A stretch of DNA of 63,976 nucleotides, the filler included, from a bacterium (lineage in GTDB: Bacteria; JBBIVP01): NCBI GenBank assembly GCA_037439705.1. It is 5 parts of 5 records of this genome, joined end to end, with 100 filler letters (N's around TTAATTAATTAA, not from the genome) between each part and the next. Parts side by side here need not be neighbours in the genome. Positions count along the whole stretch, not along the records: positions 27,363 to 40,569 come from JBBIVP010000038.1; 4 more parts are not named here. One strand, given 5' to 3'. A program made the translations under genes and the position numbers. Shown piece after piece: positions 27,363-40,569 of the stretch (its first letter is position 1; each line of letters opens with the position of its first letter). The notes below the pieces were generated by a model that was not told the DNA's origin, ran no database searches, and worked only from the letters and a program-made list of their open reading frames with translations.

Positions 27363-27364
27363 AT

Positions 27365-27883
27365 GGAAATGAAAGTAGAACCCGTTCAGCATTTATCTTA
27401 AGGGAAAAAGAGGCAAGGAGATGGAATGTGCGGTGGGTTCTTGGAGAATTCGGAATACTTTTTCAGACAAAAAATTCGGAAAAGTATCTTGAGGACCATA
27501 TGAAATTGATTGAGGAGTTCAGCATTTCCTCCTTTTACTGGAATTACAACAGGGAAAGAGACGATATGAGTCCTGTGGATGAAGAAGGAAATGAAAAATG
27601 TTTATCCTATTGCCCCCTTGATGTCCTTTCAAGAGCCTATCCACAGAAAACCTATGGCGAACTTCTCAGGTTTAGTTTTGACAGAAGTAAAAAAGAATTC
27701 GTTATGGAGTTTAAGAGTTATGGAGAAGAATATCCCACCGAGATTTACCTTCCAGAAAGGCATCTCGGAAAAAATCCGAAAATATCGGTAGAAGGAGGGC
27801 CTTATGAGTATTACATAAAAGACCAGATTCTTTATCTGTTTGCAAACGAAAAAGGGAAATATAAAATAAAGGTATCCCGATAA
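27365..27883 (+). CDS. Glycoside hydrolase family 5 (endoglycoceramidase-like), C-terminal part; 5'-truncated
   Basis: VLGEFG nucleophile motif, YWNY, LSRAYPQKTYG and PTEIYLP; the frame is open from the contig edge. Confidence 0.75.
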   Translation, partial: GNESRTRSAFILREKEARRWNVRWVLGEFGILFQTKNSEKYLEDHMKLIEEFSISSFYWNYNRERDDMSPVDEEGNEKCLSYCPLDVLSRAYPQKTYGELLRFSFDRSKKEFVMEFKSYGEEYPTEIYLPERHLGKNPKISVEGGPYEYYIKDQILYLFANEKGKYKIKVSR

Positions 27884-27896
27884 TCAAAACGAAAAC

Positions 27897-31265
<3,369 letters not shown>

Positions 31266-31543
31266 AATACCTGTGTAGTGTACACATATATTGTTACCAC
31301 CCATGGGGTATTTTTGAGGGGATTCGCCCCCAAACCCACCATTTTTATTTTCTTATCTTTTTTGATGAATGGGATATGTTGGTAAGCCCTATTCCTTTCA
31401 AGGCACTCTCTATCACCAAAATAGAAACCTTTTACCTCAAATCTCCAACCCCTTTCCCCTGGTCACAATGTGTAGGTGCTTCTACAAACGGATACTTGAA
31501 AACTATTTCTGAAAAATGTAATTATAATTGAAAGAGGGTTAAA

Positions 31544-32273
31544 GTGAGAATAGAGGTAGAATTAAATAATGATTCTCCCTTTAAATTTCCCAGGGACTAT
31601 AGACATTATTTCATCTCCTTTCTAAAGAAAATTTTCTCAGAAACTTTATGAAGATAAGAGAACAAAGCCATTTACATTTTCTGTTTGGTTAGGTGATAAA
31701 TTTGACATAGAAGATGATGAAATTCAGCTGGGAGAGCACCTCTATTTTCTCTTTTCCTCAGGTGAGCCTTCCATTCTTACTCACTTCTACAATGGCATAA
31801 TTAGTATAAAAGACGAGATTATCCCATTAGGAAAATCTAATTTTAAAATAGGGAAAATATCCCTTCAGCCTCTAAAGAAGATTAGAGGAATAAAGATTCT
31901 ATGCAAAACAATTGGAATTTCCATTATTACAAGCCCGGATGAATCAGCCAGAGATTTCAAAAAATGGTATGTAATCTCTATAGATGAGTTGACATTCTTC
32001 AACGATGTCCTGAAAAAAAGGACAAATGATAGGTTTGAACGAATAAAGGGAAGAAAAGGGAGCTTTGAGATTGAATCAAAACCTTTAATGGGCTATAAAG
32101 ACTCAATAAAAGAAACTGTTGTGAAGCATTATGGGGCATATTTAAGGGGTTTTAGAGGATTTTTTTGGCTTGAAGGAGACGAAGAGATATTGCAGTTTGT
32201 CTATGATTTCGGCCTCGGCGTAAGAATAGGGCAGGGATTTGGGATGATTGAAGTTATAAAGGAAGCAGAATAA
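31544..32273 (+). pseudogene. cas6: CRISPR-associated endoribonuclease Cas6, frameshifted near 31640
   Basis: GTG 31544 gives MRIEVEL...FPRDYRHYFISFLKKIF, then TGA at 31649-31651. Another frame is open from about 31641 (LYEDKRTKPFTFSV...) to the G-rich loop GLGVRIGQGFG at the C-terminus. Confidence 0.88.
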
Positions 32274-32392
32274 AAGGAATGACCGAGAAGAATCCCCTTG
32301 AAAATTTTGAAGGATCAGATTGTAGCTATAAAAATTGTCCAAAAGGTAAGGAGTGAATGGCTAAATTAGAAATTAATTATAGGTAAGGAGAA

Positions 32393-32602
32393 GTGGTAAA
32401 AGATAAAAAACTTCTTGAAAAGTTTGAAATAGAACTCACCAAAAAAGAACTCCCAAACATTGAAAAAAATCTTGCAATCTTTAATGAAATGCTTGAATTT
32501 GCGAAGGAAATGAAAAAAATTCCCCCTCCTGATCCTTTTGAAGGAATAGAAATCGATATAAAATATGCAGGAGCAATAAATGGAATTAAAAGAACTTCTT
32601 AA
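32393..32602 (+). CDS. Small hypothetical protein, partner of the downstream nucleotidyltransferase (putative antitoxin-like)
   Basis: Strong SD TAAGGAG before GTG; 69 aa with P.DP.EGIE.DI motif; overlaps the next gene. Confidence 0.7.
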   Translation: MVKDKKLLEKFEIELTKKELPNIEKNLAIFNEMLEFAKEMKKIPPPDPFEGIEIDIKYAGAINGIKRTS

Positions 32603-33140
32603 AAATCTGGCAAGGGAATTTGAAAAAAATAATCTTAATTACATGATAATAGGTGGCCAGGCGCTTTTAATTTATGGGGAACCAAGGTTAACCAATGATA
32701 TAGATATTACAATTGATGGTGGACTTGAAAAATACAATTTGCTCATTGACATTTCAAATAATCTTAAATTGAAAATCTTACCCGAAAATCCATTTGAGTT
32801 TGTAAAAAAGACAATGGTTTTACCAATGCTGGATGAAAAAACAGGATTAAGAATAGATATTATTTTCTCATATTCTCTTTATGAAAAAGAGGCTTTTAAA
32901 AGGGTAAATAAAATCAAAATTGATGATGTAGGCGTGAACTATGTTTCTGTAGAAGACCTTATAATCCATAAGATAATAAGCGGTAGGGAAAGGGACTTTG
33001 AAGATGTGAAAAATATTATATTGAAGAATAAAAATATAGATGAGGAATATATTTTAAAATGGCTTAAAGAATTTGAAAAAACCCTTGATACTCCACTTAC
33101 AAACATTTTTTTGAAGATGAAAGGGGAAATCGGAGAATGA
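32580..33140 (+). CDS. Pol-beta superfamily nucleotidyltransferase (DUF6036/AbiEii-like)
   Basis: YMIIGGQA...YGEPRLTNDIDI, RIDIIF and EDLIIHK..SGRERD.ED motifs. Confidence 0.82.
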   Translation: MELKELLKNLAREFEKNNLNYMIIGGQALLIYGEPRLTNDIDITIDGGLEKYNLLIDISNNLKLKILPENPFEFVKKTMVLPMLDEKTGLRIDIIFSYSLYEKEAFKRVNKIKIDDVGVNYVSVEDLIIHKIISGRERDFEDVKNIILKNKNIDEEYILKWLKEFEKTLDTPLTNIFLKMKGEIGE

Positions 33141-33180
33141 GGATTTTGCAACTGAGAATCTATCAACCCATGCTCACTAA
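33137..33180 (+). pseudogene. cas5: Stub of cas5 (type I-B-like N-terminus)
   Basis: ATGA-coupled start gives MRILQLRIYQP; restoring one C gives QPHAH, matching the usual Cas5 start M..L.L.IYQP.AHY; similarity is lost afterwards. Confidence 0.6.
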
Positions 33181-33404
33181 ATTTTTTTTTGGAAAATTTA
33201 AGATATGAGCGACATTAAGGAGTGGGGTTTTGATAAATTATTTTTGTAAAAGGATTTCGCTCTTTGGCAACTAAAATGAGATTGCAAAACCGGGGGTTTG
33301 GCGCAAAAATACCCCACAAAATCCAAAAAATTCTCACAAATAAGCAACTTAACCTCGGGGGTCCAATCTGCCAATTTAAAGAATTTGAAAATGAGGGAGG
33401 AAAG

Positions 33405-33438
33405 TTGAATAGAGAATTTAAATTGGTAAAATTGATTT
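33405..33438 (+). promoter_or_regulatory. Sigma70 promoter, leaderless arrangement (DUF1844 gene)
   Basis: TTGAAT-16-(TGg)TAAAAT-6 nt-ATG, no SD. Confidence 0.6.
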
Positions 33439-33903
33439 ATGCCAAAAGAAGAGAAAGAGGGATTAAAAATAATTGATAAAAGAAGGTTCAGACTGAAGGA
33501 GGATGGAACTGTAGAGGGAGTGGAGGAAACGGAGGAAAAAGCCGGGGCGGAGAAAGAAATAAAAAAAGAGGAAATAAAATCAGCAGAGGAAAAGATAAAA
33601 GAGGGTAAGAAAATTATGGATGAGGTGGAGGAAGAAGAACTAATTCAACTTCCACCTGTTGATTTCTAAACATTCATTGCATCTCTCGCCACAACTGTCC
33701 TTGTAAATCTCGGACATATCCCTGATCCATCAACCGGAGAGCTTCTAAAAAATCTTGAGGTGGCAAAATATCACATAGATATAATAGACATGCTCGTTGA
33801 AAAAACGAGAGGAAATCTCTCTCCCGATGAGGAAGAATTTATAAAAGAGGTTTTAAAGGATTTGAAAATCAGATATGTGGAAGAAATAAAAAGCAGTAAT
33901 TAA
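33439..33903 (+). pseudogene. DUF1844-family protein with one in-frame TAA at 33667-33669
   Basis: IIDKRRF N-terminus, then LPPVDF*TFIASLATTVLVNLGHIPDPSTG...NLEVAKYHIDIIDMLVEKTRGNL..DE...LKIRYV; the frame continues to TAA 33903. Confidence 0.8.
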
Positions 33904-33919
33904 TAAGAGGAGGCAAAAG

Positions 33920-35409
33920 ATGAAAAAGGCTATTGGTGGTATTTTGCTCTTTTTTTTAGGCTTTGCGGGTGGGGCAATTCTTTCGGTTGCCGAAGATTTT
34001 CACGGATGGAGTTTTTTTAAATCAAAAACAATTGCGGAAAAAAGTGAACAGATTGAAAAATCAAGCGAACCTTCAAAAATCACAAAACAGGAAGAATGCG
34101 TTACCCTTCCTTCCTTTTCGGAAATTGTTAAAAAGGTAAAGCCCGCTGTTGTGAACATAAAAGCAACGAAGGTAGTAAAAACCCAGCCATCTCCATTTTT
34201 CAGATGGTATGGGGACCCGTTTGAGGAATTCTTCAGGAGATTTTTTGAAGGAATTCCAAGAGAACATGTTGAAAGGAGTCTCGGTTCAGGATTCATAATT
34301 GACGAGGAAGGGTTCATACTTACAAATTACCATGTGGTAAGTGCTGCGAGGGAAATAAGAGTAAGCCTTGAAAGCGGAAAGGAATTTGATGCAGAGGTTA
34401 TAGGAACTGACCAGAAAACCGATATTGCTCTCATAAAGATAAAATCCAATGGCCCATTCCCCACAGTGAAAATGGGAGATTCGGATATCCTTGAGATAGG
34501 AGATTTGGTAATTGCCTTCGGAAATCCATTTGGGCTGGGTCATACTGTAACTGCTGGAATTGTGAGCGCCAAAGAAAGGGTTCTTGGAACAGGTCCTTAT
34601 GACTCCTACATCCAGACCGATGCCCCAATAAACCCTGGAAACAGCGGTGGTCCACTCATAAACATAAAGGGAGAGGTGGTAGGAATAAATGCAATCATAT
34701 ATTCGCCAACTGGCATTCCACAGAACATAGGAATAGGGTTTGCCATTCCAATAAATCTTGCAAAAACTCTTCTTGATCAGCTGAAAAAAGGAAAGGTGGT
34801 GAGAGGATGGCTCGGCGTTTACATTCAGGAAGTAACTGAAGACCTTGCTGAAAGTTTGGGACTGAAAGAACCGATGGGAGCNNNNNNNNNNNNAGTCCGG
34901 CAGAAGAGGCTGGAATAAAAAGAGGAGATGTTATCATCTCCTTTGAAAGAAAGGAAATCCGGAATTCCAGAGAGTTACCAACTATTGTAGCTTCAACCCC
35001 TGTCGGTAAAGTTGTGGATGTCGACATATTAAGAGATGGCAAAAAAATGACACTGAAGGTGAAAATCGGAAAAATGCCCGAGGAAGGAGAAATGGTTGCA
35101 GAAGGTGAAGAAGAAACAGTGGTAGAAGAAAAAATAGGGCTCAGAGTTCAAAATCTGACAAAGGAGATGGCTGAATCCCTTGGCATTAATGAGCCATACG
35201 GAGTTATAGTAACCGAGGTGCTTCCAAATACACCCGCTGAAAATGCTGGTTTTCAAAGAGGAGATGTAATATTTGAGGTAAACAGAAAAATTGTCCGGGA
35301 TGTTGAGGAATTTAAAAGCCAGATTAAACAGGCGCTTGAAAAAAAGGTTGTCCTCTTTCTTGTAAAAAGAGGAAGGGCAACAATCTACATCGCCTTGAAA
35401 TTGAGATAA
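33920..35409 (+). CDS. DegP/DegQ (HtrA) serine endoprotease with two PDZ domains, spanning a 12-N scaffold gap
   Basis: [34 protein letters not shown] and RGWLGV motifs; PDZ sequence resumes after the gap at 34882-34893 ([14 protein letters not shown]). Confidence 0.92.
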
Positions 35410-35448
35410 AGACCGAAATTAGTTTTTATTTTAAACAAAATTCACTCA

Positions 35449-35463
35449 TGGTAGTATTAAGAG
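35449..35463 (+). promoter_or_regulatory. Extended -10 promoter, leaderless arrangement (tauE-like gene)
   Basis: TGgTAGTAT-6 nt-ATG. Confidence 0.5.
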
Positions 35464-36243
35464 ATGAAAATTTTGTTTATACTTCTTTGTCTTATCACAG
35501 GATTCATCAGTGGATTTTCTGCAGGGTTTTTTGGTATAGGTGGAGGAATAATAAATGTTCCATTTCTTCTCGCCCTGTTCTATTTTTTTCAGAATGTTGG
35601 AGATCCGGTTAAAAAAAGCATTGCAAGTTCCCTTGCTGTTGTATTTATTGCTTCCCTTTCTTCCTCCTACACACATTTTAAAACAAACAGAAACCTTCTT
35701 CTTAAAAATATCATCATACTGGGCTCTGCAGGAGGAGCGGGAGCAATTATTGGAGCCCATATTGCAATTTCCATTAAATCCTTATATCTAAAAAAAGCCT
35801 TTGGTCTAATTGAAATTCTGGCATCCCTCTACATACTGTTTCACAAAGAATCTGAAGACGGGAAAAAAAACGGCAATTCAGTTCTCCCCGGCATTTTCGC
35901 ATTTATTGCAGGAATTTTTTCTGCAACCTTTGGAATAGGCGGAGGTGTAATTTTTATACCTCTTATGAGATTTTCTACCTCATACTCCCTTCATGATATC
36001 ATAGGGTATTCAAGCGGAATGATACCATTTGCTTCTTTGTTCGGGATTTCCCAGTATTTATGGGTTGGACTCTCAAAGGGAAAAAATTTAATAAATTTTC
36101 AGGCTGTTATTCCAATGGCTTTAACAAGTATCATCGGAGCAAGGTTCGGAGCAAGGTGGGTTTATAAATTGAATAAAGAAAAACTGAAGGTTTTTTATTC
36201 ATTATTTCTTTTTCTGATAGGATGTTATCTTATTTTCTCTTGA
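35464..36243 (+). CDS. TauE/SafE (TSUP) family transporter
   Basis: Duplicated GFFGIGGG / TFGIGGG motifs, about 8 TM helices. Confidence 0.88.
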   Translation: MKILFILLCLITGFISGFSAGFFGIGGGIINVPFLLALFYFFQNVGDPVKKSIASSLAVVFIASLSSSYTHFKTNRNLLLKNIIILGSAGGAGAIIGAHIAISIKSLYLKKAFGLIEILASLYILFHKESEDGKKNGNSVLPGIFAFIAGIFSATFGIGGGVIFIPLMRFSTSYSLHDIIGYSSGMIPFASLFGISQYLWVGLSKGKNLINFQAVIPMALTSIIGARFGARWVYKLNKEKLKVFYSLFLFLIGCYLIFS

Positions 36244-36287
36244 TGGTTATGGGAAAATTTAATAAAATTTAAAAAAAAGGAGGAGAA

Positions 36288-36839
36288 ATGGAGGTAAAGG
36301 TCGGAAATCTAATTATAGAGTGCATAAGGGGAGATATTGCGAATCAGCAGGGTATTGATGCGGTGGTAAATGCAGCCAATGCAATGTTAAAACCGGGAGG
36401 AGGAGTTGCGGGTGCCATTCACAGGGCTGCAGGTCCTGAACTTGAAAAAGAGTGCCGAAAATATGCGCCGATAAAACCGGGAGATGCTGTAATTACAAAA
36501 GGATACAGACTTCCAAACAAGTATGTGATTCACTGTCTTGGACCGGTTTATGGAGTTGACCATCCTGAAGATGAACTCTTGAGTAAATGCTACAGAAATG
36601 CCTTAAAACTCGCGGAAGAACACAAAATTGAATCAATTGCATTTCCAGCCATTTCCACTGGAGCATTTGGATACCCTATGGAAGATGCAGCGGAGGTCGC
36701 TTTCAAAACCATTCTTTCAATGGTTGATGAATTAAAAAATGTAAAAAGAATAAGGTTTGTCCTTTATGCTGAAAAGGACCTCAAAATTCATGAGGAGGTT
36801 CTAAAAAAAATCCTTGAAGAAAAGGGACTGGCAAAATGA
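36288..36839 (+). CDS. Macro domain protein (YmdB-like ADP-ribose binding/hydrolase)
   Basis: GDI, VNAAN, GGGVAGAIHRAAG and FPAISTGAFGYP motifs. Confidence 0.93.
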   Translation: MEVKVGNLIIECIRGDIANQQGIDAVVNAANAMLKPGGGVAGAIHRAAGPELEKECRKYAPIKPGDAVITKGYRLPNKYVIHCLGPVYGVDHPEDELLSKCYRNALKLAEEHKIESIAFPAISTGAFGYPMEDAAEVAFKTILSMVDELKNVKRIRFVLYAEKDLKIHEEVLKKILEEKGLAK

Positions 36840-36852
36840 AAGAAAATGATAA

Positions 36853-38373
36853 ATGCGTATAAGGGAATTTTTTCTAATTTTATTTATCATTTCATGTTCC
36901 TCAGAAAAAAGTAAAGACCAGATTTACGGAATAATAAGCTCTGAACCACCATCACTTGACCCTGCTCTTGCTACAGACAGCGTTTCATATCTCATTCTAA
37001 ATAACATAATGGAGGGACTCACAAAATTTGATGAGAATATGAATGTGGTTCCGGGTCTTGCAGAAAGATGGGAAATCCTTGATGGAGGAAGAAAATTTGT
37101 TTTTCATTTAAGGGAAGCAAAGTGGTCTGACGGAAAAGAAATAACGGCAGATGACTTCATTTATGGATGGAAGAGGCTTTTAAACCCAAAAACCGGGGCG
37201 GAATACGGCTATTTTCTATATCCTGTAAAGGGAGCGATGGATTTTAATACAGGAAGAATTAAGGAAATAGGCATCCAGGCAATTGATAAAAAAACAATAC
37301 TTGTTGAACTTGAGGAGCCGATAGTTTTCTTTCCAGCAATGGTAGCATTTATGTCAACATATCCACAGAGAAAAGACCTTGTTGAGAAATATGGAGAAAG
37401 GTGGCTATACCCTCCACACGGTGCATACTGCGGTCCTTTCATCCTGAAAAGATGGAAAAGGGATTATTCCATTGAACTTGAAGGAAATCCTTTTTATTAC
37501 AGACCTGTTTCAAAAAAGGTGAAACTCTTTGTTGTAAGCGATGTGTCCTCTGCCATATCCCTTTACAAAAAGAATTTTATAGATTATATGGGCATCCCTT
37601 CATTTCTTCTCTCTCATATAAAAAAGGGTGAGTTTGAAGGAGAAATTTTTTCCTTCCCCGCATTCAGGGGCTCGTATATTGGATTTAACACAAAAAAAGA
37701 GCCATTTGATTCTCCTCTTATAAGAAAGGCATTCGCCATGGCAATAGATAAGAATGAAATAATAAAGGTAATAGGAACTGGAATTCCAGCAAACTCCTGG
37801 ATACCTCCCGGAATGTTCGGACACAATCCATCAATAGGATTGGAGTTTGACCCCGAAAAAGCAAAGGAACTTCTGAAAGAGAGTGGAAAGGAAATAAAGG
37901 AAATTTCGCTTTATTACAACTATACACCAGAAAATCACCTCATAGCCCAGAACATTCAGGAACAATGGATGAGAAATCTCGGCATAAAGGTCAAACTTGA
38001 AACAATGGAATGGAAGGCATTTCTCCAGATGGTAAAACTCTCTCCACCTCCTGCGTACAGGCTTGGATGGGCTGCAGACTATCCCGACCCTGATAACTTT
38101 ATGACATTGTTTACATCCACAAGTGGAAACAACCATACAGAATGGAAAAACGAAAGGTATGACAGGTTAATAGAACTTGCCAGGTCTGAACCGAATTTAT
38201 CCCGAAGGCTAAAACTCTATAATGAAGCCCAGAAAATTCTTGTTGAGGAAGATGTTCCGATAATTCCACTCTTTTTCAATACGAACAATTACCTCGTTCA
38301 TCCCTGTATAAAAAACTTCAATCCCGGAGCACTTGATATTATTTCATTTTATTCTGTAGAAAAGGAATGCTGA
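36853..38373 (+). CDS. Peptide ABC transporter substrate-binding lipoprotein (OppA-like)
   Basis: Lipobox IISC; EPPSLDP, EGL, AKWSDG, TADDF and GWAADYPDP motifs. Confidence 0.9.
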   Translation: MRIREFFLILFIISCSSEKSKDQIYGIISSEPPSLDPALATDSVSYLILNNIMEGLTKFDENMNVVPGLAERWEILDGGRKFVFHLREAKWSDGKEITADDFIYGWKRLLNPKTGAEYGYFLYPVKGAMDFNTGRIKEIGIQAIDKKTILVELEEPIVFFPAMVAFMSTYPQRKDLVEKYGERWLYPPHGAYCGPFILKRWKRDYSIELEGNPFYYRPVSKKVKLFVVSDVSSAISLYKKNFIDYMGIPSFLLSHIKKGEFEGEIFSFPAFRGSYIGFNTKKEPFDSPLIRKAFAMAIDKNEIIKVIGTGIPANSWIPPGMFGHNPSIGLEFDPEKAKELLKESGKEIKEISLYYNYTPENHLIAQNIQEQWMRNLGIKVKLETMEWKAFLQMVKLSPPPAYRLGWAADYPDPDNFMTLFTSTSGNNHTEWKNERYDRLIELARSEPNLSRRLKLYNEAQKILVEEDVPIIPLFFNTNNYLVHPCIKNFNPGALDIISFYSVEKEC

Positions 38374-39263
38374 AAAAAATCTTCGCTGGACTGATTACTC
38401 TCTGGATTGTGTTAACCCTAACTTTCTTCATATTGAGGTGGATACCGGGTGGTCCATTTGACGAAGAAAAGGCATTGCCACCGGAAGTAAAGGAAAACAT
38501 CTCTACGCTTTACGGACTGAACCTTCCGCTTCATGTTCAGTACATAAAATATATAAAATCCCTTTTAAAGGGAGATTTGGGACCATCTTTAAAATTCAGG
38601 GATTTGAGGGTAAATAACATCATTTCTCAAGCGCTTCCTGTTTCGGCAAGAATTGGAATACTTGCCTTTTTTCTATCTCTCTTTCTTGGCATATCTTTAG
38701 GACTGATGGAAGGGACCGGAAAAAATTTTTCAAGACCTGTTTCAGCGTTTTTCAGCATCCTCATCTCCTTTCCATCCTTTGGCTGGGCATCTCTTCTTCT
38801 GTTCTTTTTTTCCTACAAAACAGGCATTTTCCCACCCGCACTTCTTGAAACACTTTCTCATTATTTTCTCCCTGTTATAACACTTTCCATAATTCCCACT
38901 GCCCACATAGGAATGCTTGTGGGTACGAGAGCAAGGGAGGAAAAGGAAAAAGGCTATTTTACCTTTCACCGCTCCCTTGGATTCAGTGAGGCAAAAATAT
39001 ACGGAAAGTTTTTACTCAAGAATGTTCTTTCTCCTGTGCTTTCCTCCATTGGACCACTTTTTGCCTATTTAATCACGGGGTCTTTCATTGTTGAAAAGAT
39101 ATTTGCGATTCCCGGACTTGGAAAATTCTTTGTCACATCTGTAATAGACAGAGACTACACCACTGTAATGGGGCTAACCCTTCTTTTCTGTTCAATCCTC
39201 ATTGTGGTTAACATAATGACTGAATGGCTTTTGAGAATTATAGACCCGAGGGAAAGAAAATGA
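38367..39263 (+). CDS. Peptide ABC transporter permease (OppB-like)
   Basis: PGGPF, GDLGPS, GSFIVEKIFAIPGLG and IDPR motifs. Confidence 0.9.
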   Translation: MLKKIFAGLITLWIVLTLTFFILRWIPGGPFDEEKALPPEVKENISTLYGLNLPLHVQYIKYIKSLLKGDLGPSLKFRDLRVNNIISQALPVSARIGILAFFLSLFLGISLGLMEGTGKNFSRPVSAFFSILISFPSFGWASLLLFFFSYKTGIFPPALLETLSHYFLPVITLSIIPTAHIGMLVGTRAREEKEKGYFTFHRSLGFSEAKIYGKFLLKNVLSPVLSSIGPLFAYLITGSFIVEKIFAIPGLGKFFVTSVIDRDYTTVMGLTLLFCSILIVVNIMTEWLLRIIDPRERK

Positions 39264-40024
39264 AGTGGGTTCTTCTTACATTTCTTTCCATTATTGCTCT
39301 TGCCTGTATTTTTGCTCCATACATCACAAAAAAATCGCCCTACGAACAGAATATAGCCAAAATTCTCTCTGCACCTTCTTCTGAACATCCATTTGGAACA
39401 GACCAGCTCGGAAGAGACCTTTTTTCAAGGGTTCTTTATGGAGGAAGGACAACATTCATTATATCAACCATTTCAGCCTGTTTGAGCCTATTAATTGGTA
39501 CAGCAATAGGAATTCTTTCGGGATATAAAGGAGGAATTTTTGATACGCTCATCATGAGAATTCTTGACGGAATATATTCGTTTCCTGACCTTCTCACAAT
39601 AATTATTCTTACTGTGCTACTCGGAAGAAAACCATCGGGAATTATCCTGTCCTTAAGCCTCACCACATGGGTGGTGGTGGCAAGAATAGTCAGAGGAGAA
39701 GTTATAAGGTTAAAAAATCTTGAAATGGTGGAAGCAGGGATAGCGCTCGGAGCAACTCACTGGCGGATAATCTTTTTTTACATTCTACCAAACCTGAAGA
39801 ACCTTTTAATCACTCTATTTGTTATGAGAATCCCGGGAGCGATTCTATCAGAATCCGTGCTTTCCTTTCTCGGACTTGGACTTGCTCCCCCATCTGCAAG
39901 CTGGGGAATACTTGTAAACGAAGGCTGGAACCTTTTATTCTTCGCTCCTCATCTTGTTATTTTCCCGAGCATTTTCATCTTTCTCACCGTCCTTTCACTT
40001 TATCTTCTGGGGAAAAACCTGTGA
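39260..40024 (+). CDS. Peptide ABC transporter permease (OppC-like)
   Basis: HPFGTDQLGRD, EAGIALGA and ESVLSFLGLG motifs; ATGA overlap at 39260. Confidence 0.9.
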   Translation: MKWVLLTFLSIIALACIFAPYITKKSPYEQNIAKILSAPSSEHPFGTDQLGRDLFSRVLYGGRTTFIISTISACLSLLIGTAIGILSGYKGGIFDTLIMRILDGIYSFPDLLTIIILTVLLGRKPSGIILSLSLTTWVVVARIVRGEVIRLKNLEMVEAGIALGATHWRIIFFYILPNLKNLLITLFVMRIPGAILSESVLSFLGLGLAPPSASWGILVNEGWNLLFFAPHLVIFPSIFIFLTVLSLYLLGKNL

Positions 40025-40569
40025 AGGAAGCACAATCTTTTCAATGGCACATAACAAACTTATGCAATTTCAGATGTTCACACTGTTACCAGGAAGACTT
40101 TTCTTCAGAGCACGACCTTCCATCTGATAAAATAAAAACAATTTTAGAAAATTTAAAAAATCAGTTTGGAAAAATTTTCATAAACATAACAGGCGGTGAG
40201 CCTTTTCTAAAAAAGGATTTTTTTGGAATTCTTGAACTCATTGAAAAATTTGACGGAGTTGAAGGATTTAACATCATAACAAACGGGATATTTCTTGATG
40301 AAGAAAAAATTGGAACCTTAAAAAAATCTCAAAAGTTGAAAGAATTAAAAATTTCCATTGAAGGAATAAAATCCAACGACTTCATAAGGGGAAAAGAGGC
40401 TCTAAATGCGGTCAAAAAGAACTTAGAAAAAATTTCTGGAATTAAAAGGATAATTATGTTCACAGTGGCCAGTTATAACTACAAAGAGATTGAGGATGTA
40501 TTTGACTTCGCAAGAAATAATGCTGATGGATTGATAGTTGAAAGGTTTGTTCCCCTTGGAAATGGTTTG
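40021..40569 (+). CDS. Radical SAM protein (3'-truncated)
   Basis: CNFRCSHC (CxxxCxxC), TGGEP and TNG motifs. Confidence 0.88.

Follow-up and report, generated by a model that had tools for sequence, protein, structure and literature searches.

A putative MenAT1-like nucleotidyltransferase pair in the remnant of a type I-B cas operon

The stretch of DNA analyzed here (the window; 63,976 bases) consists of several contigs of one metagenome-assembled genome (MAG; G000, 239 contigs, 2.03 Mb, 88% complete) with runs of N between them, and the locus of interest lies inside one of these contigs, C38 (13.2 kb; window 27363-40569). The region is probably what is left of a type I-B cas operon in which two tandem nucleotidyltransferase (NTase) toxin-antitoxin (TA) modules lay between cas7 and cas5, the surviving one being a cas-resident, MenAT1-like variant; we assign this reading a probability of about 0.65. 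Of a type I-B system the locus holds a cas6b gene, which is frameshifted, and 16 codons of cas5; Cascade and cas3 are otherwise missing, as are adaptation genes and an array, and the locus is thus a remnant and not a working system. A decayed type I-B-like operon without cas8, cas7, cas3, cas1, cas2 or array had been described in the original prediction, and this description stands for C38: no further cas genes or CRISPR array were found on the contig, and tblastn of C38 with Cas8b, Cas11b, Cas7b, Cas5b and Cas3 from related loci returned no match (cas1 and cas2 are present on other contigs of the genome). No array was detected in the window or, by k-mer scan, in the contigs of the genome, and a search of positions 30800-34000 against Rfam returned no family at gathering score, the best CRISPR-repeat family being CRISPR-DR45 (20.8 versus 37 bits, at 33835-33858).

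The first gene of the remnant is a cas6 pseudogene of the Cas6b type (31544-32273, + strand), matched by PADLOC Cas6b (2.6e-40), Pfam Cas_Cas6_C (4.3e-18) and TIGR01877 (4.5e-11). As predicted it is frameshifted: the reading frame from 31544 ends at a stop at 31649-31651, and a second frame runs from 31626 to 32273. Relative to L033, a contig of 2,521 bp from a MAG that carries the label Candidatus Aminicenantes and the best relative of the window locus, 17 bp are missing between 31643 and 31644; this deletion, not a homopolymer slip, breaks the frame, and the longer, open reading is kept in L033 and in the genome's own second cas6. The two genes reported as intact are so: a 69-aa putative antitoxin of an unnamed family (32393-32602, + strand, GTG start) and a 186-aa DUF6036 nucleotidyltransferase, a putative MenT1-like toxin (32580-33140, + strand), with open reading frames (ORFs) that overlap by 23 nt. 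The Shine-Dalgarno (SD) site of the 69-aa gene (32381-32390, + strand) ends 2 nt before the GTG; at the corresponding position L033 reads AGGTAAGGGG, then ATG. After the NTase comes a cas5b relic (33137-33179, + strand) made up of codons 1-16 with a 1-nt deletion, and its ATG overlaps the NTase stop (ATGA) as had been noted. The relic matches Cas5b N-termini and the 5' DNA of 22 related loci, in which the gene after the NTase is Cas5b (e.g. L040, PADLOC Cas5b 2e-42; N-terminus MK[VI]LKLKI[YF]QPTAHYRIPF) and of which 11 show the same 4-nt overlap of the cas5b ATG with the NTase stop. The deletion is seen where the window has CAACC-CATGCTCACTA and L035 has CAACCGCATGCTCATTATA.

Between cas6 and the intact pair lies the relic of a first small-protein and AbiEii nucleotidyltransferase pair (32279-32369, + strand), in which the beginning of a 96-aa gene runs directly into the final ~14 codons of a 189-aa NTase gene. 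Two stub ORFs had been described here and do exist, at 32279-32356 and, as MAKLEINYR, at 32357-32386, but they are not independent small genes: L033 carries at this place, between cas6 and the 69-aa gene, an intact 96-aa gene (its ATG overlapping the cas6 stop) followed by a 189-aa NTase gene (Pfam AbiEii 2.3e-13). Aligned with L033, the window lacks ~750 bp, with the deletion junction within 32298-32327 and a ~90-bp relic left; the ORF at 32279-32356 is the start of the 96-aa gene, and the frame ending at 32369 (...IKIVQKVRSEWLN, then stop) is the end of the 189-aa gene. An origin of the stubs from cas8 or cas7 was rejected, as L033 shows them to be the two ends of the deleted AbiEii-type pair. 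MAKLEINYR was likewise rejected as the true start of the small gene, though it is in frame with one TAA between, because the small gene of L033 begins with an ATG where the window has its GTG, and because MAKLEINYR runs over the former NTase stop codon.

The 10-mer AGGTAAGGAG, which had been proposed to mark deletion junctions, is indeed present twice at the locus (32344-32353, one base later than first reported, and 32381-32390; three occurrences in the window versus 0.15 expected), but it is no junction: the first copy is part of the old coding tail of the 189-aa gene, the second is the SD site, and the junction lies elsewhere. At the first copy L033 reads AAGTTAAGAAAC, and four clustered substitutions made the repeat; within the 11 nt at window 32344-32354 (L033:1482-1492) these turn AGTTAAGAAAC into AGGTAAGGAGT, in surroundings that diverge by ~5%. 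The first copy may have arisen by micro-conversion from the SD site 37 bp away.

Nucleotide identity between L033 and the window is 88% over cas6 and 95% over the pair and stub. L033 has the same cas5 relic, shared up to 33179 with the same breakpoint and the same 1-nt deletion, so that the cas5 truncation and the loss of Cascade genes are common to both; the 17-bp cas6 deletion, the loss of the first pair and the ATG-to-GTG change, by comparison, are recent and limited to the window's lineage. Divergence from L033 differs from gene to gene, with a dS of 0.40 and dN/dS of 0.18 for cas6 (212 codons), 0.18 and 0.36 for the small gene, and 0.067 and 0.41 for the NTase, the last from 19 changes only. 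The six-fold difference in dS between adjacent genes points to recombination. Among 60 species genomes screened for close relatives all were related at the level of 'same domain' only, which ruled out a vertical comparison.

The surviving NTase was assigned to Pfam DUF6036 (4.2e-11; 43.4 bits versus a cut-off of 23.6), with weaker matches to DUF2204 and AbiEii. When a profile of its family (alignment A1) was compared with the PDB, the best match was MenT1 (8AN4, E 6e-9 over positions 5-147), with 8AN5 and 8RR5 also matched. Its AlphaFold2 (AF2) model has a predicted local distance difference test score (pLDDT) of 93.6, and the top five Foldseek matches of this model are MenT1 chains (template modelling score, TM, 0.75), ahead of LnuA, ANT(2'') and CCA-adding enzymes. 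The hG[GS] and DxD motifs and third carboxylate of such enzymes correspond to G25, G26, D40, D42 and D93, which are invariant in A1; within the clade of cas-resident relatives described below, G25, T38 and D42 are found in 28 of 28 members and G26, D40 and D93 in 27. T38 aligns with the threonine of the MenT1 'RFTRDVD' motif, which is the MenT1 phospho-acceptor (T39 in PMC11375011). The median dN/dS of the NTase is 0.15 over 167 pairs. The family is large (668 proteins at E <= 1e-5), and its members are named at source only as 'nucleotidyltransferase', DUF6036 or AbiEii/AbiGii; relatives were present in 0 of 50,697 phage records and, at 28% identity, in 2 of 72,556 plasmid records.

A small ORF homologous to the 69-aa gene overlaps the NTase start in 108 of 119 loci (alignment A2). 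The 69-aa protein itself has no Pfam, NCBIfam, PADLOC or PDB-sequence match and no named relative in the ESM Atlas, and its AF2 model consists of three helices (pLDDT 82). Modelled together, the two proteins gave a complex score of 0.89, with 0.01 for the best control; 116 of 157 solved complexes attained this mark, as did 2 of 215 mismatched pairs, though, the MenAT1 complex having already been solved, part of this result may come from model memory or likeness and not from the behaviour of this copy. Three runs agreed in at least 90% of contacts, with a pLDDT of at least 72 for the partner. The modelled interface covers NTase residues 35-37, 39-40, 42 and 93, and the C-terminal helix of the 69-aa protein is placed on residues 35-42, 78-82 and 93-102, which form the catalytic cleft.

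MenT1 adds nucleotides to the acceptor ends of tRNAs, and MenA1, a 68-aa helical antitoxin, links two toxin molecules over the active site and brings about auto-phosphorylation at T39, as set out in the parts of PMC10435456 and PMC11375011 drawn on here. The window pair resembles this system in a toxin of similar length (186 versus 196 aa) and the same fold, with profile homology between the two; in a conserved GG...EPRxT+D+D motif, which includes the threonine targeted by MenA1-induced auto-phosphorylation; and in a short, all-helical partner (69 versus 68 aa) encoded just upstream and modelled over the active site. It differs in that the NTase is only 14-18% identical to MenT1, in that the small protein shares no sequence similarity with MenA1 and has three helices in its model where MenA1 has two, and in that the window clade is embedded in cas operons. 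The term CRISPR is absent from PMC11375011, and no link to cas genes is made in the parts of PMC10435456 or PMC11375011 drawn on here. We infer from these likenesses that the 186-aa protein works like MenT1, as a Pol-beta-fold enzyme that would add nucleotides to tRNA 3' ends and stop translation, and that the 69-aa helical protein is probably its antitoxin, lying across the catalytic cleft; it may also trigger an inactivating auto-phosphorylation of Thr38. The TA character first proposed for the pair fits both the MenT1 homology and the complex model, and proteins of the ~69-aa type would then form a putative antitoxin family previously unnamed and undescribed.

The original prediction also called for a search of homologues for residence in cas operons. 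With the NTase alignment, one genome per species was scanned; of 599 matched stretches, 590 contained relatives, and 80 loci were retained. PADLOC served to annotate Cas proteins in 21 loci, and these proteins then became the phmmer queries for all 119 loci. In a FastTree phylogeny of 111 NTases, all cas-embedded copies but three fall in one clade (28 rows, i.e. 27 loci and the window; SH-like support 89), and the label of cas or no cas changes 4 times on the tree versus 27.4 times in shuffles, with 0 of 500 shuffles as low. All 27 clade loci lie inside cas operons. The pair stands directly before cas5b in 17 of them (type I-B) and after cmr5 in six III-B operons, four of these before cmr6; in one locus each it is found between cas6 and cas8b, after cas3, and between cas6 and cas3, and the last locus is L033, arranged as in the window. 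The common layout of related loci is cas6-cas8b-cas11b-cas7b-[93 aa + 202 aa AbiEii pair]-[small gene + NTase]-cas5b-cas3-cas4-cas1-cas2, the 93-aa and 202-aa AbiEii pair being present in six loci; of this layout the window and L033 retain cas6, the two pairs (the first a relic in the window) and the start of cas5, without cas8b, cas11b and cas7. The earlier view that the pair had been built into the operon before decay is upheld by its frequent position before cas5b and by the recurrent ATGA overlap. Gaps between the pair and flanking cas genes measure -11 to +43 nt, leaving little room for a promoter of the pair's own. The strong point here is the several changes of position and of CRISPR type combined with residence in an effector operon in every locus examined, the loci being kin and not independent of one another.

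Outside the clade, 8 of 89 loci have a cas gene within 4 kb (six in a second clade; the others are L084 and L105), and in the remaining 81 no cas gene was present among the neighbours examined, these being covered by PADLOC within +/-5 kb for 13 loci and by Pfam on the two nearest genes of each side for 68 (36 loci with 125 proteins, and 32 of 35 loci with 109 proteins), with short flanks in six of the 81. The second clade of NTase pairs (~51% identity to the window's) lies one to two genes upstream of RAMP/Cmr1...Cas10 genes (L132, L134, L136-L138, L140, L142-L146 and L151) and may represent an independent association with type III modules. Small candidate-defence proteins designated 'PDC-S09' by PADLOC were also observed inside pair-carrying III-B operons (L035:6180-6482 and L038:4281-4679), and a 55%-identical copy is present on C204 of the window's genome.

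A mechanism that would tie the module to its operons can be outlined from this context. In the clade, the module resides in cas effector operons and would be co-transcribed and translationally coupled with the effector genes. As the pair has no evident promoter of its own there, a loss of operon transcription, whether by shut-off or by loss of the operon, would stop the supply of antitoxin and release the toxin. By analogy with MenAT1, the freed NTase would block translation through extension of tRNA 3' ends, an activity that the small protein would normally neutralize by covering the cleft and possibly also by phosphorylation of Thr38. The freed toxin could serve operon addiction (a penalty on cas silencing) or provide a backup by abortive infection, and could do both; the module of this genome would have outlived its operon. 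We tentatively propose, as a conjecture well short of even odds, that the clade is a protein-based guard of type I-B and III-B effector operons, transcribed only along with the operon, so that silencing or deletion of cas genes or shut-off by phage would free a tRNA-modifying toxin, and that it would be a protein counterpart of CreTA/CrePA found across CRISPR types and able to outlive its operon.

Several results weigh against a cas-bound, MenAT1-like TA module at this locus. The 69-aa protein has no sequence similarity to MenA1 or any solved chain, and the NTase scores below the gathering score of Pfam AbiEii (PF08843; 19.9 versus 22.5 bits, 7e-4), the sole PADLOC match being AbiEii at 4e-3. 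Dependence of the antitoxin on Cas proteins is a feature of CreTA and would be conjectural for the window pair. In L147-L149, which are otherwise intact I-B operons, the small gene is whole and the NTase lacks residues ~31-118, including the catalytic aspartates; the module can thus be lost or disabled in an intact cas operon, the sister pair has been lost in the window, and any addiction would be leaky and not absolute, which weakens the earlier suggestion that the pair cannot easily be lost. (Decay of the toxin first with the antitoxin kept, as in L147-L149 and on contig C223 described below, is what is expected under TA logic.) Support for the clade is moderate (89, below 95), many of its members are metagenome contigs that may come from related organisms, and 27 of 27 overstates the number of independent events. 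That only the pair survived is weakened by cas6, whose dN/dS of 0.18 relative to L033 indicates that it was under selection until recently; given that L033 shares the cas5 truncation and Cascade loss, this selection on cas6 outlasted the effector genes, and cas6 perhaps served another system in trans. Finally, gyrB of the L033 genome (G061:C29; L154, L155) is 67-73% identical to the window's, compared with 88-97% for the cas6-pair segment, a mismatch suggesting that the segment passed from one lineage to another or that the L033 contig was binned wrongly.

Three other explanations were weighed. The pair could be an ordinary mobile TA cassette without a functional tie to CRISPR, which landed once in a cas locus and has since been passed on with it by inheritance and transfer, hitch-hiking in a defence island. 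This would agree with the 81 of 89 loci outside the clade that stand alone among housekeeping, TA or other defence genes, with a free-standing paralogous pair in the same genome (contig C10), and with the shared descent of clade members, many from similar metagenomes. Within one clade, however, at least five different positions of the pair are seen, spread over two CRISPR types (I-B and III-B), which implies repeated moves that yet ended inside an effector operon in all loci examined, and translational coupling links the pair to the cas genes on either side. With purifying selection (median dN/dS 0.15) and a second, separate clade at the border of type III modules also speaking against it, we regard this explanation as unlikely. 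Comparably improbable, in our estimate, is that the NTase is a CRISPR ancillary enzyme with the small protein as its regulatory subunit, modifying 3' ends of crRNA or target RNA, or acting on tRNA only after effector activation. A fixed place between effector subunit genes (cas7/cas5, cmr5/cmr6) is typical of components of a complex, selection is strongly purifying with catalytic residues conserved, and a III-B/C-linked 'nucleotidyl trans.' family, C3a174, is listed in Table 1 of Shah et al. 2018 (PMC6546367). Yet the closest of the characterized relatives, MenT1, is a genuine toxin paired with a short antitoxin, and the partner is modelled over the active site, as suits an inhibitor and not an adaptor. 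The same two-gene unit is moreover common far from cas genes, intact I-B operons tolerate an internally deleted NTase, and a Pfam scan detected no CARF, SAVED or other sensor domain.

That the collapsed operon is an artefact of assembly or binning in a fragmented MAG, produced for instance by chimeric joins or indel errors, was given very little credence. The fragmentation and incompleteness of the genome would allow it, dispersed repeats that often end contigs flank the locus, and a DUF1844 gene nearby contains an in-frame TAA. L033, an independent assembly, nevertheless has the same order (cas6, pairs, cas5 relic) and the same cas5 breakpoint and 1-nt deletion; the 17-bp cas6 deletion and ~750-bp loss of the first pair are atypical of sequencing errors, and the locus sits inside its 13.2-kb contig, beside gyrB.

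Among known systems, AbiE belongs to the same NTase superfamily: the deleted first pair is Pfam AbiEii, and the window NTase gives weak AbiEii matches. The AbiEi antitoxins, of the COG5340 type, are larger and bind DNA, whereas the partners here measure 69-96 aa with no DNA-binding family detected, and the window NTase lies below the AbiEii gathering score. The likeness to CreTA and CrePA is that a toxin module inside a cas locus could make cells depend on an expressed effector operon, a comparison that rests on portions of PMC9458426 and PMC12737573; the difference is that their antitoxin is a crRNA-like RNA acting via Cascade, while here two protein genes overlap and leave no room for a mini-array. 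Nor were the marks of a CreTA-type element (a crRNA-like antitoxin RNA, degenerate repeats and repression by Cascade) found at the locus, as no CRISPR-DR family reached gathering score at 30800-34000 and Cascade is absent. The couplings treated in the main text of a 2025 review of TA and CRISPR systems (PMC12737573) are CreTA, CreR and CrePA, which work via crRNA-like RNAs and need the effector, together with AbiF/Cas13, and no NTase toxin appears in that text. C3a174, a family of three members reported as linked to III-B/III-C modules, shares with the window NTase its description as a nucleotidyltransferase, and Shah et al. state that no TA pairs were found (PMC6546367). Literature searches returned nothing under 'DUF6036' and nothing related under 'DUF2204'; the main text of a preprint on CRISPR-linked genes contains neither 'toxin' nor 'transferase', its supplements, which were outside the scope of the search, possibly listing the family; and a 2024 survey of type III systems contained no NTase or toxin term, its supplements again being outside the scope. 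If true, a classical protein TA pair at fixed positions in the effector operons of two CRISPR types would hinder the silencing of cas operons by other and simpler means than crRNA-like RNAs, or would add a layer of abortive infection. The module would also provide a cheap genomic marker for such operons and a testable function for Pfam DUF6036.

Paralogous copies of the pair were observed elsewhere in the genome. The free-standing pair on C10 (C10:4479-5237; L002:1295-2055) consists of an 82-aa gene overlapping a 185-aa DUF6036 NTase gene (33% identity) and is flanked by genes for TPR and membrane proteins, with cas genes absent from its vicinity. At C223:2136-2400 the small antitoxin-like gene has an orphan copy (78% nucleotide identity to the window's), and the NTase after it is cut at ~17-25 codons; this orphan may be an anti-addiction copy.

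Other cas genes of the genome are found on separate contigs (C153, C42 and C62). At C153:1-1563 (L031) a second cas6 is intact (256 aa, 44% identity to the window cas6) and is followed by ~640 bp without a convincing ORF and then by the start of cas8b, in which the contig ends after ~50 codons; C153 may be a live I-B operon split by assembly. A long spacer between cas6 and cas8b is the site of CreTA-type RNAs in other I-B loci. At C42:79-806 (L004), cas4 at the contig start is followed by an 82-aa N-terminal fragment of cas1 (one in-frame TAA in the match) and then by unrelated genes, and is another decayed cas remnant. The end of C62 carries csx1, a gene of unknown kind, cas1 and cas2. No cas7, cas5 or cas3 was found in the genome with Pfam Cas5d and tblastn, the genome being incomplete. 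Only the beginning of C29 gave a signal resembling an array in this genome, and this signal was rejected because it is a 63-bp tandem repeat whose copies have no unique spacers between them.

On C38 the locus is preceded by gyrB (window 27932-30346) and followed by the DUF1844 gene and a gene for an HtrA-like protease. The in-frame TAA of the DUF1844 gene (window 33439-33903) is at 33667-33669, and both the frame and the Pfam DUF1844 match (8.9e-14) go on past it. Downstream of the pair, the solo end of a multicopy short repeat (33180-33224, + strand) begins exactly at the end of the cas5 homology. Its 35-bp core (TGGAAAAGTTAAGATATGAGCGACATTAAGGAGTG) occurs in 25 copies on 25 contigs (C147, C62 and C52 among them), 12 of them within 150 bp of a contig end, and the repeat runs into two different downstream variants; an interpretation as the end of an insertion sequence was rejected, as no transposase lies beside two full copies, and the element is classed as a short dispersed repeat. 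Immediately upstream of cas6 and outside the module lies a dispersed repeat of ~215 bp resembling a miniature inverted-repeat transposable element (31274-31489, + strand). BLAST of this repeat against its own genome gave 10 matches of at least 40 bp in 10 contigs, the best on C19 (91% over 217 bp); it has imperfect terminal inverted repeats, and promoter-like sequence often follows its copies.

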